Virus record (IMG/VR): IMGVR_UViG_2563366960_000006
Reading direction: 5' to 3' (one strand)
Source: a virus
Taxonomy: Duplodnaviria; Heunggongvirae; Uroviricota; Caudoviricetes
Length of the DNA stretch: 22,262 bases
Within the stretch, counting starts at the first letter, position 1; each line of letters begins with the position of its first letter. The position numbers and the translations under genes are program-made. Positions 4,993 through 10,507 of the stretch are shown here, one piece after another. Under the pieces are notes generated by a model that had not been told where the DNA came from, searched no databases, and worked only from the letters and a program-made list of their open reading frames with translations.

Positions 4993-5125
4993 TTTTTGGG
5001 ACTCCTGGCTGATTAAGTATGTCGATAAGGCGTTTCCATCCGTCACGTAATTTACGGGTGATTCGTTCAAGTAAAGATTCGGAAGGGCAGCCAGCAACAG
5101 GCCACCCTGCAATGGCATATTGCAT
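4961..5125 (-). CDS. cIII: CIII (FtsH inhibitor stabilising CII), 54 aa
   Basis: Not in the ORF track (under 60 aa). Hand translation from ATG at 5125 (SD AAGGAG) gives [54 protein letters not shown], stop at 4961-4963; overlaps kil by 32 nt as in lambda. Confidence 0.85.
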   Translation of the reverse strand: MQYAIAGWPVAGCPSESLLERITRKLRDGWKRLIDILNQPGVPKNGSNNYGYPD

Positions 5126-5197
5126 GGTGTGCTCCTTATTTATACATAACGAAAAACGCCTCGAGTGAAGCGTAATTGGTATGCGGTAACGCCGCGC

Positions 5198-5584: not shown

Positions 5585-5612
5585 ATAAAAAATCGCCCTC
5601 ACACTGGAGGGC
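5585..5612 (-). terminator. Intrinsic terminator on the minus strand, between the 156-aa gene and ea10
   Basis: Minus strand: GCCCTC-CAGTGT-GAGGGC (plus 5595-5612) followed by GATTTTTTAT (plus 5585-5594). Confidence 0.45.
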
Positions 5613-5716
5613 AAAGAAGATTTCCAATAATCAGAACAAGTCGGCTCCTGTTTAGTTACGAGCGACATTGCTCCGTGTATTCACTCGTTGGAATGAATAC
5701 ACAGTGCTTATTCGTA

Positions 5717-6232: not shown

Positions 6233-6261
6233 GCCAAAAATAAAGGCCGATTATGCGGCCT
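6233..6261 (-). terminator. Intrinsic terminator on the minus strand after the 207-aa gene
   Basis: Plus 6244-6261 AGGCCG-ATTATG-CGGCCT; on the minus strand the hairpin is followed by TTTATTTTTGG. The gene's stop codon (6251-6253) lies in the loop. Confidence 0.4.
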
Positions 6262-6874
6262 CGGAAGGAAGTCCAATCATCTTATTCAAATCTTCTACCC
6301 GTAAAGCAGGAAGTGCTGCACTTGCTTTATCTGCTTCTTTTGGTAGCAACTCTTTGCTTTCAGGCCAAACTTCAATAAGTCGCTTAACTGTTGTGACTGA
6401 GTTCAAAGCAGCCCATACATTTGATTCGATATCCTTTTTCTTGGCTTCAAGTTTTTGTTGCAATGCGCAGATTTCATCAAACCTTTTTGTTATTTCGTGT
6501 TCTGCGCTAAACATGCATTTATATTGGGTCGGAGTAGGGAGCAATATATCTTCGCCGTTGCCGTCTTTCCCATATGAAAGCCATCCAACCCTTCTGCCAG
6601 ATACAGTCAGATAAATTGATGCAGAACGAACATCGCATGAGCAAAATGAACATCCCAGTTTTTCAAGTTCTTCACTTATAGCTACTAACTTGGATGATAA
6701 CTGATCCACTTCCTCAGTTTTCTTTTTACCGCCAAACGCAATAACTCTGGCGTTAAGTGCAAGCTGGTTCTTTAACTTTGTTACTTCTTTAAGTTCAGTG
6801 AAAACCCCAGACTTAATTAAAGCGTTACGAGCGATTTCCTCTTTCATTCTCGTAGTTAAGCGGATTGATGACAT
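6251..6874 (-). CDS. Hypothetical protein (207 aa from ATG at 6874), first gene after N
   Basis: Track ORF extends to 6934, but ATG at 6874 has a good SD (GAGAGGAA) and avoids overlap with N. Predicted coiled-coil segments and a Cys cluster (GCSFCSCD). Sits where lambda carries sieB/ral. Confidence 0.6.
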   Translation of the reverse strand: MSSIRLTTRMKEEIARNALIKSGVFTELKEVTKLKNQLALNARVIAFGGKKKTEEVDQLSSKLVAISEELEKLGCSFCSCDVRSASIYLTVSGRRVGWLSYGKDGNGEDILLPTPTQYKCMFSAEHEITKRFDEICALQQKLEAKKKDIESNVWAALNSVTTVKRLIEVWPESKELLPKEADKASAALPALRVEDLNKMIGLPSEAA

Positions 6875-6885
6875 ATTAATTCCTC

Positions 6886-7185
6886 TCAAATAAGTTGTTT
6901 GCTGCCTAATTTTATTTTCTGGCGACCAACACAAGTCACACCCATTTCACTCCGTGGTTTCCGGTAGTAAATACGGTTCTGTTTACGCTCGACTTCTTCT
7001 GCCTTCTTGCAGCGAAGGCTTCCGAGTGATGCTGCTTTATCTGCTCTGACGCAACCAGAGAGCTTTAGCGCAATTTTTCGCGCCAGTCGCTGCTCTTGCA
7101 TTGCCTGTTCACGTTGAGCCTGTCTGCGTGCTCTGCGGCGATTTCTGGCGTTATCGTCAGCCAGATATGTAATGACTACTGTCAT
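6886..7185 (-). CDS. N: N-like transcription antitermination protein (99 aa from ATG at 7185)
   Basis: First gene downstream of pL/nutL; arginine-rich N-terminus (NARNRRRARRQAQREQ); C-terminus ...RIYYRKPRSEMGVTCVGRQKIKLGSKQLI resembles the lambda N C-terminus (...TWYSKPGERGITCSGRQKIKGKSIPLI). N-terminal ARM differs from lambda N. Confidence 0.8.
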   Translation of the reverse strand: MTVVITYLADDNARNRRRARRQAQREQAMQEQRLARKIALKLSGCVRADKAASLGSLRCKKAEEVERKQNRIYYRKPRSEMGVTCVGRQKIKLGSKQLI

Positions 7186-7291
7186 GTTGACCTCCGATGA
7201 TTGACTTTGGCGGTGACGCGCCGGGTGCTTATCTTCCGGTTGCCGTCGTGCAGCTGCACTTCGCGTCACCCCAAAGACAACTACTCTTTGG

Positions 7292-7333
7292 TTCCCGCAT
7301 TTCGGCGGGACAATCCCATCAATGTTAAAGAGC
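7292..7333 (-). promoter_or_regulatory. nutL (boxA + boxB) on the minus strand
   Basis: Minus strand carries boxA GCTCTTTAACA (plus 7323-7333) and boxB hairpin TCCCGC-CGAAAT-GCGGGA (plus 7292-7310); the same boxA/boxB pair recurs downstream of cro. Confidence 0.65.
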
Positions 7334-7379
7334 CTGCCAATCTGTTCCGTTTGGCTTCCAGCGTTCTGCTGATGTGTTT

Positions 7380-7442
7380 AGTATCACCGCTAGTGGTATG
7401 TGTGTCAACACCGCCAGAGATAATTTATCACCGCAGATGGTT
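7380..7442 (-). promoter_or_regulatory. pL promoter with operators OL1-OL2-OL3
   Basis: 17-mers TATCACCGCTAGTGGTA (7382-7398, OL1), CAACACCGCCAGAGATA (7406-7422, OL2), TATCACCGCAGATGGTT (7426-7442, OL3); minus-strand -35 TTGACA (7403-7408) and -10 GATACT (7380-7385) with 17-nt spacing. OL2 and OL3 match lambda; OL1 differs by one base. Confidence 0.85.
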
Positions 7443-7599: not shown

Positions 7600-8310
7600 A
7601 AAACCCGGCACTGAGGCCGGGTTGTTATTGTGCACAGAAAACCCCCAGCTAGGCTGGGGGTTCCGGAAAGCTTTCAGCTTTGAGCCAGTTATTAAAACCC
7701 CTTTTGATTTGTTAAAACACCTTGCGGTCTGGCAACTGCAAGTGTCAAACAAGAAATCAAAAGGGGGTCCCAATGGGGAACGAAAAGAGCTTAGCGCACA
7801 CCCGATGGAACTGTAAATATCACATAGTATTTGCGCCAAAATACCGAAGACAGGTGTTCTACAGAGAGAAGCGTAGAGCAATAGGCTGTATTTTGAGAAA
7901 GCTGTGTGAGTGGAAAAGTGTACGGATTCTGGAAGCTGAATGCTGTGCAGATCATATCCATATGCTTGTGGAGATCCCGCCCAAAATGAGCGTATCAGGC
8001 TTTATGGGATATCTGAAAGGGAAAAGCAGTCTGATGCCTTACGAGCAGTTTGGTGATTTGAAATTCAAATACAGGAACAGGGAGTTCTGGTGCAGAGGGT
8101 ATTACGTCGATACGGTGGGTAAGAACACGGCGAAGATACAGGATTACATAAAGCACCAGCTTGAAGAGGATAAAATGGGAGAGCAGTTATCGATTCCCTA
8201 TCCGGGCAGCCCGTTTACGGGCCGTAAGTAACGAAGTTGGATGCAAATGTCAGATCGTGTGCGCCTGTTAGGGCGCGGCTGGTAAGAGAGCCTTATAGGC
8301 GCATTTGAAA
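7600..8310 (+). mobile_element. IS200-like insertion sequence (IS200/IS605 family); boundaries approximate
   Basis: Contains tnpA (7773-8231). Upstream are a terminator-like hairpin (7602-7623, then T-rich), a 10-bp stem-loop (7640-7662), and a long-range pairing between 7698-7710 and 7754-7766 that would sequester the tnpA SD (AAGGGGG), all as described for the IS200 left end. Exact termini not determined. Confidence 0.75.
7773..8231 (+). CDS. tnpA: IS200 transposase TnpA (Y1/HUH family, 152 aa)
   Basis: MGNEKSLAHTRWNCKYHIVFAPKYRRQVFYREKRRAIGCILRKLCEWKSVRILEAECCADHIHMLVEIPPKMSVSGFMGYLKGKSSL... matches IS200 TnpA (recall). ATG at 7773; the track ORF begins 51 nt earlier. Confidence 0.92.
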   Translation: MGNEKSLAHTRWNCKYHIVFAPKYRRQVFYREKRRAIGCILRKLCEWKSVRILEAECCADHIHMLVEIPPKMSVSGFMGYLKGKSSLMPYEQFGDLKFKYRNREFWCRGYYVDTVGKNTAKIQDYIKHQLEEDKMGEQLSIPYPGSPFTGRK

Positions 8311-8312
8311 AA

Positions 8313-8331
8313 CCTCCGGCTATGCCGGAGG
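8313..8331 (-). terminator. Intrinsic terminator on the minus strand after the cI-cassette operon (t-imm-like)
   Basis: Plus CCTCCGG-CTATG-CCGGAGG at 8313-8331; on the minus strand it is followed by TTTTTCAAAT, 5 nt after the 107-aa gene stop. It may alternatively belong to the IS200 right end. Confidence 0.45.
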
Positions 8332-8335
8332 ATAT

Positions 8336-8659
8336 TTATTTATGGAAAAACACTTCAAGTATTTTTGGGATTGCTGGTATGAGTTGTGAGGATACGACCG
8401 CACCTACAACCCATAGAATTATCGAAGTTTTCGCGTCGCTTACGTCTGATTTGGTTGCATAATTCGAGCGCATGACAGCCAGGTCGGTTTTCATTTGCTG
8501 AACATCTTTTTCGAGTTCTTTCACTCTTTGAAGCACATCATCACCTCCGCCATTGCCGCCACCATGCCGTGAGTATGCATCATCAGTGGGATAGTGTCCA
8601 ATTGGGCGAGATATGTTTTGATTTGGACGAAGTTGAGTAACCTTGTTATCTAAACTCAT
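8336..8659 (-). CDS. Small tail-anchored membrane protein (107 aa), second gene of a cassette replacing rexAB
   Basis: ATG at 8659. Gly-rich N-terminal region (GGGNGGGDD), predicted coiled coil (VLQRVKELEKDVQQMKTDLAVMRSNYATKSDVSDAK), C-terminal hydrophobic helix (SIILWVVGAVVSSQLIPAIPKILEVFF). Architecture resembles XhlA-type or holin-like small membrane proteins (by recall, not searched). Start overlaps the upstream gene by 14 nt. Confidence 0.65.
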   Translation of the reverse strand: MSLDNKVTQLRPNQNISRPIGHYPTDDAYSRHGGGNGGGDDVLQRVKELEKDVQQMKTDLAVMRSNYATKSDVSDAKTSIILWVVGAVVSSQLIPAIPKILEVFFHK

Positions 8660-9083
8660 CGCGAACTGATCCTGTTATCTTCACGTCAAAAAACGAACTT
8701 TTTACATCAATTACTTCGCCTTTCTCAGGATTAACCAGTGATGCTCTAACTTCGAATATCCCAGGCTTGATAATTTTCACCCTTGGGAAGTTAATTCTCA
8801 TAGAAGTTGATACGATGGTTTCTCCATCGTTGGCTTCTGCTACCGTAAAAAACTTATGGTTGGAGTACAGTTTTGTGTCAATTGGTATCGGTATTTCTTG
8901 AGCATTGAAAACCTCAATGCCTATGGAATATTTTTTTGTAGCCTTAAGGCCGATAAAAAAAGCGCCAAATGACAGATCCACTTCATGGGAGTCTTTATCC
9001 ATTTCATAGATAAGAACTGGAGTTACGGGGTTGCCTTCATCCATCGCAATCGGAATGATATAAGAAATACGTTCTTTAATCAT
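8646..9083 (-). CDS. Hypothetical soluble protein (145 aa), first gene of a cassette replacing rexAB
   Basis: ATG at 9083 lies 7 nt after the cI stop codon (9091-9093), same strand, no intervening terminator, so it should be co-transcribed with cI. No recognisable motif; low-GC composition. Confidence 0.65.
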   Translation of the reverse strand: MIKERISYIIPIAMDEGNPVTPVLIYEMDKDSHEVDLSFGAFFIGLKATKKYSIGIEVFNAQEIPIPIDTKLYSNHKFFTVAEANDGETIVSTSMRINFPRVKIIKPGIFEVRASLVNPEKGEVIDVKSSFFDVKITGSVRDEFR

Positions 9084-9090
9084 TTACGTG

Positions 9091-9807
<717 letters not shown>

Positions 9808-9814
9808 TTAAATC

Positions 9815-9880
9815 TATCACCGCAAGGGATAAATATCTAACACCGTGCGTGTTGACTATTTTACCTCTAGCGGTGATAAT
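9815..9880. promoter_or_regulatory. OR3-OR2-OR1 operators with divergent pRM and pR promoters
   Basis: OR3 TATCACCGCAAGGGATA (9815-9831), OR2 TAACACCGTGCGTGTTG (9838-9854), OR1 TACCTCTAGCGGTGATA (9862-9878); pR -35 TTGACT (9852-9857), -10 GATAAT (9875-9880). OR3 and OR2 match lambda; OR1 differs by one base. Confidence 0.9.
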
Positions 9881-9904
9881 GATTGCATGTACTAAGGAGG
9901 TTGT

Positions 9905-10105
9905 ATGGAACAACGCATAACCCTGAAAGATTATGCAATGCGCTTTGGTCAAACCAAGACGGCTAAAGATCTCGGCGTATATCAAAGCGCGATCAACAAG
10001 GCCATTCATGCAGGCCGAAATATTTTTTTAACTATAAACGCTGATGGAAGCGTTTATGCGGAAGAAATAAAGCCCTTCCCAAGCAACAAAAAAACAACTG
10101 CATAA
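9905..10105 (+). CDS. cro: Lambda Cro (66 aa)
   Basis: [66 protein letters not shown] matches lambda Cro apart from about two residues (recall). Confidence 0.95.
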
Positions 10106-10112
10106 GTAACAC

Positions 10113-10157
10113 CGCTCTTTAACAGTCATGGTCCTCATTCCCGCCGAAATGCGGGAA
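10113..10157 (+). promoter_or_regulatory. nutR (boxA + boxB)
   Basis: boxA CGCTCTTTAACA (10113-10124) and boxB hairpin TCCCGC-CGAAAT-GCGGGA (10139-10157), the same boxB as in nutL. Confidence 0.65.
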
Positions 10158-10163
10158 TACAAC

Positions 10164-10200
10164 GCGCATAAGTTGATGCGCATAACTTCTTATTTGTAAG
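10164..10200 (+). terminator. Candidate tR1-position terminator
   Basis: Hairpin GCGCAT-AAGTTG-ATGCGC (10164-10181) followed by a T-rich stretch (ATAACTTCTTATTTG). Weak; lambda tR1 is Rho-dependent. Confidence 0.25.
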
Positions 10201-10213
10201 GAAATACTTACAT

Positions 10214-10507
10214 ATGGTTCGTGCAAACAAACGCAACGAGGCTCTACGAATCGAGAGTGCGTTGCTTAACAAAATCGCAATGCTTGGAACTGAGAAGACT
10301 GCGGAAGCTGTGGGAGTTGATAAGTCGCAGATCAGCAGGTGGAAGAGGGACTGGATTCCAAAGTTCTCAATGCTGCTTGCTGTTCTTGAATGGGGTGTCG
10401 TTGACGACGACATGGCCCGATTGGCACGACAAGTTGCTTCGATTCTCACCAATAAAAAACGCCCGGCGGCAACCGAGCGTTCTGATCAAATACAAATGGA
10501 ATTTTAA
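10214..10507 (+). CDS. cII: Lambda CII transcriptional activator (97 aa)
   Basis: MVRANKRNEALRIESALLNKIAMLGTEKTAEAVGVDKSQISRWKRDWIPKFSMLLAVLEWGVVDDDMARLARQVASILTNKKRPAATERSDQIQMEF matches lambda CII. Confidence 0.93.
   Translation: MVRANKRNEALRIESALLNKIAMLGTEKTAEAVGVDKSQISRWKRDWIPKFSMLLAVLEWGVVDDDMARLARQVASILTNKKRPAATERSDQIQMEF

Follow-up and report, generated by a model that had tools for sequence, protein, structure and literature searches.

The N antitermination module and lambda-type immunity region in the early control region of a lambdoid prophage

The stretch of viral DNA analysed here (22,262 nt in full, referred to as the window) was identified as containing the early control region of a lambdoid prophage, and it raises the question whether its lambda-like immunity goes together with the N protein and nut sites of lambda or with those of another phage. 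An earlier note had argued for the latter. Comparison with named phages showed that a lambda-specificity immunity cassette (OL1-3, cI, OR1-3 and cro) very probably lies between the two halves of an N antitermination module of the HK620/CUS-3 type. Such a combination of lambda immunity with HK620-type N/nut is ordinary lambdoid mosaicism, and all of its parts are known and already annotated. The features of the region are given in Table 1.

Table 1. Features of the early control region, with positions in the window and strand.
Feature	Position	Strand	Remarks
Lambda_thermo (Rfam; cIII thermoregulator element)	5080-5138	-	88.5 bits
Candidate leftward hairpin-T terminators	6243-6262, 5593-5614, 5156-5173		Terminator scan
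Nmad5-domain gene	6251-6874	-	Directly downstream of N; Pfam E 1.7e-68; phrog_1965 (unknown function)
N antiterminator gene, 99 aa	6886-7185	-	ORF listing and translation; phrog_271
Long conserved hairpin of the N leader	7198-7278	-	Between boxB and Shine-Dalgarno; MFE -42.5 kcal/mol, z = -3.7
nutL boxB hairpin	7293-7310	-	6-bp stem, CGAAAU loop; within the stretch annotated nutL in HK620
nutL boxA	7323-7333	-	GCTCTTTAACA; identical to rrn boxA core
Left junction at pL transcription start	7361-7374	-	blastn end-points; phage 21 alignment
pL promoter and lambda-type OL1 (7382-7398), OL2 (7406-7422), OL3 (7426-7442)	7380-7442	-
Hairpin resembling lambda Timm terminator	7602-7623
IS200-family element	about 7626-8340	+	Between Timm-like hairpin and rex-position ORFs, inside the immunity region
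STnc490 leader RNA of IS200	7640-7763		Rfam
Y1 transposase of IS200	7770-8231		Pfam Y1_Tnp
Two overlapping ORFs in the rexB/rexA place, 107 and 145 aa	8336-8659, 8646-9083	-	phrog_6324, phrog_5893 (unknown function)
cI repressor, lambda type, 237 aa	9091-9804	-	Pfam HTH_3 and Peptidase_S24
OR3 (9815-9831), OR2 (9838-9854), OR1 (9862-9878), pR (9852-9880)	9815-9880	+
cro, lambda type	9905-10105	+	Pfam Cro, E 1e-34
nutR boxA	10114-10124	+	GCTCTTTAACA
nutR boxB	10139-10156	+	18 nt as at nutL, stem extends to 8 bp; within HK620-annotated nutR
Putative tR1 region	10164-10196	+	Hairpin GCGCAT-AAGTTG-ATGCGC, then T-rich tract; HK620-type; read from sequence
Second right junction, cII ribosome-binding site and start	10197-10216 (about)	+	TAAGGAAATACTTACATATG; common to lambda and HK620
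cII, lambda type	10214-10507	+	Pfam Phage_CII, E 5e-48

The immunity cassette and its surroundings

The earlier note had described cI and cro as matching lambda, and the cI-cro-cII query showed about 93.7% DNA identity with lambda. The same note counted five of the six operators as matching lambda, which was one too many. Of the six 17-bp operators, OL2, OL3, OR2 and OR3 were identical to those of lambda and the operator spacing was also that of lambda, while OL1 and OR1, the high-affinity operators, shared a single C>T change relative to lambda at operator position 10. This parallel change in the two operators suggests a lineage-specific adjustment of operator affinity. The E. coli LR-60 and Br_190 prophages, built on the same hybrid plan, also had the change, and it was absent from CL707, mEp234 and HK244.

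The two ORFs at the rex position were found downstream of cI and in the same orientation as cI. Neither had a match in Pfam, NCBIfam or PADLOC, and their position makes them candidates for exclusion or defence genes expressed in the lysogen. The IS200 element interrupts no gene; the gap that it occupies is non-coding and runs from the Timm-like hairpin to the 3' end of the downstream ORF. It was absent from the immunity region of E. coli LR-60, which is otherwise 99.8% identical to the window (over 8336-10216), and it was 99.7% identical to an IS200 copy located elsewhere in phage PhiR63_2. The element therefore inserted recently.

For the left operon, the Rfam match to Lambda_thermo at 5080-5138 on the minus strand showed that the part beyond N is lambda-like. 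This cIII thermometer and the STnc490 leader of IS200 were the only matches of the Rfam scan, and the nut sites are without an Rfam family. In addition, a stretch 96.6% identical to the Nmad5 gene (nucleotide modification associated domain 5; 6251-6874, minus strand) was found at the same place in HK244.

The N gene and the nut sites

N is the first gene of the pL operon, with the minus-strand order pL (7380-7408), boxA, boxB and N start. The start codon was assigned to the ATG at 7185, which has a GGAGG sequence ahead of it. A mechanically called GTG ORF of 127 aa (6886-7269) was also listed, the first 28 codons of which are leader sequence and do not belong to N. The 99-aa protein was translated as MTVVITYLADDNARNRRRARRQAQREQAMQEQRLARKIALKLSG...GRQKIKLGSKQLI and matched phrog_271, 'anti-termination protein N-like', with an E value of 5e-35. 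The match to Pfam N_peptide reached 20.3 bits, under the curated cut-off of 27.9, and N had no match in NCBIfam or PADLOC. In E. coli genomes the PGAP annotation of this N reads 'hypothetical protein', and that of other N types 'antitermination protein N' or 'transcriptional antitermination N peptide'.

The arginine-rich motif (ARM) of N, NARNRRRARRQAQREQ, occupied residues 12-27 and the whole arginine-rich head about residues 11-27, with R16 and R20 invariant among the aligned N types. Full-length N was 97% identical to the N proteins of CUS-3, IME10, HZ41 and vB_EcoP-611R6. By segments, residues 1-64 had 98% identity to HK620 N and residues 37-99 had 97% identity to phage 21 N. By these alignments N is evidently itself a mosaic, with an HK620-type arginine-rich head and a phage 21-type body and C-terminus, a point that goes beyond the earlier note. 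The C-terminus of N also aligned with lambda N as present in PDB entry 6gov, chain N.

The leader that holds boxA and boxB of nutL has a length of 188 nt. Its long hairpin (7198-7278, minus strand) showed a few compensatory changes in a consensus fold of five homologues and was kept in HK620, phage 21, HK244 and Br_190. In the lambda N leader, an RNase III-sensitive structure controls the translation of N, and this hairpin probably corresponds to it. Insertions appear to have recurred in the hairpin region. E. coli LR-60 (locus L009, 1784-2147) had an N leader approximately 360 bp longer, the extra sequence falling between window positions 7200 and 7270. Among the matches listed in the IMG/VR scan, the N start was 300-600 nt further downstream than usual at 9 of 101 nutL sites.

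Both nut sites were found as repeated sequences in the window. The 18-mer TCCCGCCGAAATGCGGGA occurred in exactly two copies, at 7293-7310 on the minus strand and 10139-10156 on the plus strand, each in sense orientation within its early transcript, and shuffles of the window produced no matches to it. The earlier note had placed a common boxB at 7292-7310 and 10139-10157; the sites were right and each interval was one base too long. The two copies folded into hairpins with a stem of 6-8 bp and a CGAAAU loop, at -10.5 and -12.5 kcal/mol (z = -3.1 and -3.9), and none of 200 shuffles folded as well. Likewise, the 11-mer GCTCTTTAACA was present in exactly two copies, at 7323-7333 (minus strand) and 10114-10124 (plus strand), positioned upstream of boxB in the direction of transcription by 12 nt at nutL and 14 nt at nutR. 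One nut site thereby falls in the pL leader and the other in the interval from cro to cII, each in the orientation in which pL or pR transcribes it.

The boxA had been called rrn-like, and the 11-mer proved identical to the rrnH leader boxA of E. coli K-12 (TGCTCTTTAACAA) and fitted the NusB/NusE-binding consensus. NusB:NusE was reported to bind the BoxA of rrnG about ten times more tightly than the BoxA of lambda nut (PMC2800207). Downstream of nutR, the sequence of the putative tR1 region was identical in HK620, where tR1 is annotated beside nutR. The terminator scan did not call this hairpin (10164-10196), so its tR1 function is what we infer here.

Direct comparison with lambda (J02459) decided whether the module could simply be that of lambda, the outcome that would follow if the earlier note had the lambda boxB wrong. 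The lambda sequences are GCCCTGAAGAAGGGC and GCCCTGAAAAAGGGC for boxB, CGCTCTTA for boxA and MDAQTRRRERRAEKQAQW for the ARM, whereas the window has TCCCGCCGAAATGCGGGA, GCTCTTTAACA and DDNARNRRRARRQAQREQ, respectively. The differences covered both the stem and the loop of boxB, and the leader and the middle of N also differed. No DNA similarity to lambda was found at 6886-7360, nor from 10106 to about 10196. What is held in common is the layout (pL-boxA-boxB-leader-N and cro-boxA-boxB-tR1-cII), the RRRxRR core of both ARMs and a homologous RNA polymerase-binding segment at the C-terminus of N, the likeness to lambda N being confined to the last 35 residues with 57% identity (BLASTP). Identity with lambda N/nut was ruled out by this alignment and has virtually no chance of being correct; the arginine-rich N-terminus and the shared boxB are both distinct from those of lambda, as had been claimed.

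Mosaic junctions and related phages

The closest relatives of the nut sequences were found in HK620 (AF335538), annotated in 2001, in which the features 'nutL; putative N-utilization leftward' and nutR cover the nut sequences of the window. Window positions 6994-7374, which comprise the pL leader, boxA, boxB, the leader hairpin and codons 1-64 of N, were 98.7% identical in HK620/HK630, and the nutR-tR1 stretch of HK620 was essentially identical up to the cII ribosome-binding site. The marks of the HK620-type class, the ARM MTVVITYLADDNARNRRRARRQAQREQ and the boxB TCCCGC-CGAAAT-GCGGGA, were identical in HK620, HK630 and the window, and the HK620-type module was also present in ECP1 and mEp213. 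However, HK620 N has a C-terminus of the H-19B/HK97 type (CSGSICLPNVAIYAAGYRKSKQLTAR) and not the phage 21/lambda-type C-terminus found in the window, and the repressor, operators and cII of HK620 are not lambda-type. The phages CUS-3, IME10, HZ41 and vB_EcoP-611R6 had the same head and 21-type tail of N as the window and 97-98% identity over the nutL leader. Their similarity ended at window position 7374, and their operators and immunity are therefore not lambda-type.

Phage 21 (OL657228) showed the same leader architecture. Two parts were nearly identical to the window, one reaching from the pL start through boxA and the other from codon 34 of N onwards, and about ten residues precede the ARM in both N proteins. 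In contrast, boxB was replaced (TCTCAACCTAACCGTTGAGA at nutL and CACCTCTAACCGGGTG at nutR of phage 21) and the first 33 codons of N, which contain the ARM (GTAKSRYKARRAELIAERR in phage 21), were scrambled, while the leader was about 75-80% alike with the long hairpin kept. The specificity determinants, boxB and ARM, are therefore the most diverged parts of a shared scaffold.

The end-points of these similarities defined the joints of the mosaic. At the left, the lambda-like sequence stopped at 7361 and the HK620-like sequence covered 6994-7374, leaving a 14-nt overlap, CATCAGCAG(A/G)ACGC, at the pL start that is common to lambda-type and HK620/21-type sequences. It follows that pL and its operators are of lambda type, and that the leader is HK620/21-type over its whole transcribed length. 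At the right, the lambda-type cro ended at its stop codon (about 10105), where the HK620-type nutR/tR1 stretch began. These two positions agreed with the recombination junctions that the earlier note had put between N/nutL and OL and between cro and nutR. A third junction, which it had not described, was found at the cII ribosome-binding site: past TAAGGAAATACTTACATATG, cII is lambda-type again, so that nutR/tR1 forms an island of roughly 95 bp between lambda-type cro and cII. Recombination at short conserved lambdoid joints would have produced the hybrid; these joints are the start of pL, the region of the cro stop and boxA, and the ribosome-binding site of cII.

Earlier examples exist in which lambda immunity is combined with a non-lambda N/nut. 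Degnan et al. 2007 (Mol Microbiol 64:232), as cited in PMC11893012, dealt with wild phages of lambda immunity specificity, and these phages were compared here through GenBank records EF120455-61. The phages HK97, mEp234, HK106, CL707, HK244, HK542, HK544 and mEp332 have lambda-type cI, cro and operators with about 92-93% DNA identity. Like the window, the wild lambda-immunity phages have a 'rex position' with variable cargo and mosaic flanks whose junctions fall at the start of pL and downstream of cro. In three of them, mEp234, HK97 and HK106, lambda immunity goes together with a non-lambda N of HK97 type and a P22-like boxB. The HK620-type N/boxB was found in none of these eight phages. Both the N/nut set, in HK620 and CUS-3, and hybrids of this kind, in HK97 and mEp234, were thus on record beyond what the earlier note had considered.

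Specificity and distribution of the N-boxB pair

The ARM type matched the boxB type in every genome compared. Lambda, CL707 and HK244 had the lambda ARM with the lambda boxB, mEp234 had an HK97-type ARM with the P22-like boxB GCGCTGACAAAGCGC, phage 21 had its own ARM/boxB pair, and HK620, HK630, E. coli LR-60 and Br_190 had the pair found in the window. The IMG/VR scan showed at least 119 stretches with a boxA-spacer-boxB of the window type. Among the matches listed, 101 nutL sites had enough downstream sequence, and an N with the window ARM or a variant with 1-2 substitutions followed 96 of them. This tight natural co-occurrence of ARM and boxB, as read from the genomes, argues for a specificity separate from that of lambda.

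The proposed mechanism was drawn from the lambda, phage 21 and P22 paradigm. Upon derepression, pL and pR would produce transcripts carrying boxA, which would load NusB and NusE, and the boxB hairpin, to which the arginine-rich motif of N (about DDNARNRRRARRQAQREQ) would bind. Contacts with NusA and RNA polymerase would follow, made by the phage 21-like middle and the lambda/21-like C-terminus of N. In concert with NusA and NusG, N would convert RNA polymerase to a termination-resistant form, and the modified polymerase would read through tR1 and the leftward terminators. Repression and immunity would follow lambda rules, with cI acting at OL and OR. As the head of N and both copies of boxB must match, they would therefore travel together even though the immunity cassette parts nutR from N/nutL. 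Binding and antitermination by the HK620-type N/boxB pair are predicted from homology and co-occurrence, and no experiment on HK620-type N or boxB was found in the searchable literature.

A rival reading takes the module as a relic in a defective prophage, in which N and the nut sites would be conserved in sequence and no longer work. The IS200 copy at about 7626-8340 within the immunity region and the 'hypothetical protein' label given to the same N by PGAP could be taken in that sense, but the element lies in a non-coding gap and breaks no gene, and the N ORF, its Shine-Dalgarno sequence, both nut sites, pL, pR, all six operators, cI, cro and cII were found intact. Moreover, the N/nut module is shared with plaque-forming phages such as HK620, CUS-3, HK630 and IME10. 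A relic is very improbable.

Whether the HK620-type pair also differs from lambda in function is a separate matter. With its ARM DDNARNRRRARRQAQREQ and a boxB of a 6-bp stem and CGAAAU hexaloop, the pair is rather likely to represent a functionally distinct, uncharacterised N-boxB class, orthogonal to the lambda, P22 and phage 21 pairs. The competing view is that the sequences differ and the specificity does not, that is, HK620-type N may also act on the lambda boxB and lambda N on the HK620-type boxB, and 'non-lambda specificity' would therefore overstate the case. It draws on the GNRA-like GAAA contained in the CGAAAU loop, as in the GAAAA and GAAGA loops of lambda, and on the A-x-x-RRR-x-RR present in both ARMs with the invariant R16 and R20. 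The boxB loop of the window has six nucleotides versus five, however, with a stem sequence and closing pair that differ from those of lambda, and its ARM is without an equivalent of lambda Trp18 and is preceded by ten extra N-terminal residues, like that of phage 21 N. The association of the window ARM with the window boxB at 96 of the 101 IMG/VR sites (among the matches listed) would also be unexpected if boxB types were interchangeable. Cross-reaction is improbable in the light of these differences, and a distinct class is preferred, in which the element recognised by HK620-type N might be a GNRA tetraloop with a C-U mismatch closing it.

The module was found to be common in E. coli and to be combined with several kinds of immunity. 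The N-nutL module, from N through the pL start, was present at 80% coverage or more in 346 of the 5,426 complete E. coli genomes (about 6%). The inter-nut sequences of 88 IMG/VR loci with both nut sites formed 10 clusters with at least 8 immunity types, the lambda type being one of them; the nut pair therefore behaves as a fixed frame for the exchange of immunity cassettes. Lambda immunity paired with HK620-type N was found in E. coli LR-60, Br_190_kylling, S51, GPEC349-628 and WS4437A-1 and in four IMG/VR contigs. A search of the 50,697-record phage collection showed no named phage with HK620-type N/nutL and a lambda-type OL, every top match ending at window position 7374, and the combined OL1 and boxB pattern had no match in the GTDB species representatives (one genome per species). 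Overall, HK620-type N/nut with lambda immunity is not new, and it is just this particular pairing of known parts that isolated, named phages lack.

For annotation, N is a recognisable antiterminator, and the 'hypothetical protein' label of PGAP represents an annotation gap for a common prophage gene. HK022 Nun exclusion targets the lambda boxB. If the distinct class is true, lambda-immunity prophages of the window lineage would be blind to lambda N and, by extension, would escape Nun exclusion. The HK620-type N/boxB pair is also an inexpensive candidate for an additional orthogonal peptide-RNA tether. Apart from correct annotation, the locus is otherwise of small importance: it adds a further clear case of lambdoid module swapping at short conserved joints, with the immunity cassette changing between two nut sites, both of which have to remain matched to a one-sided N gene.
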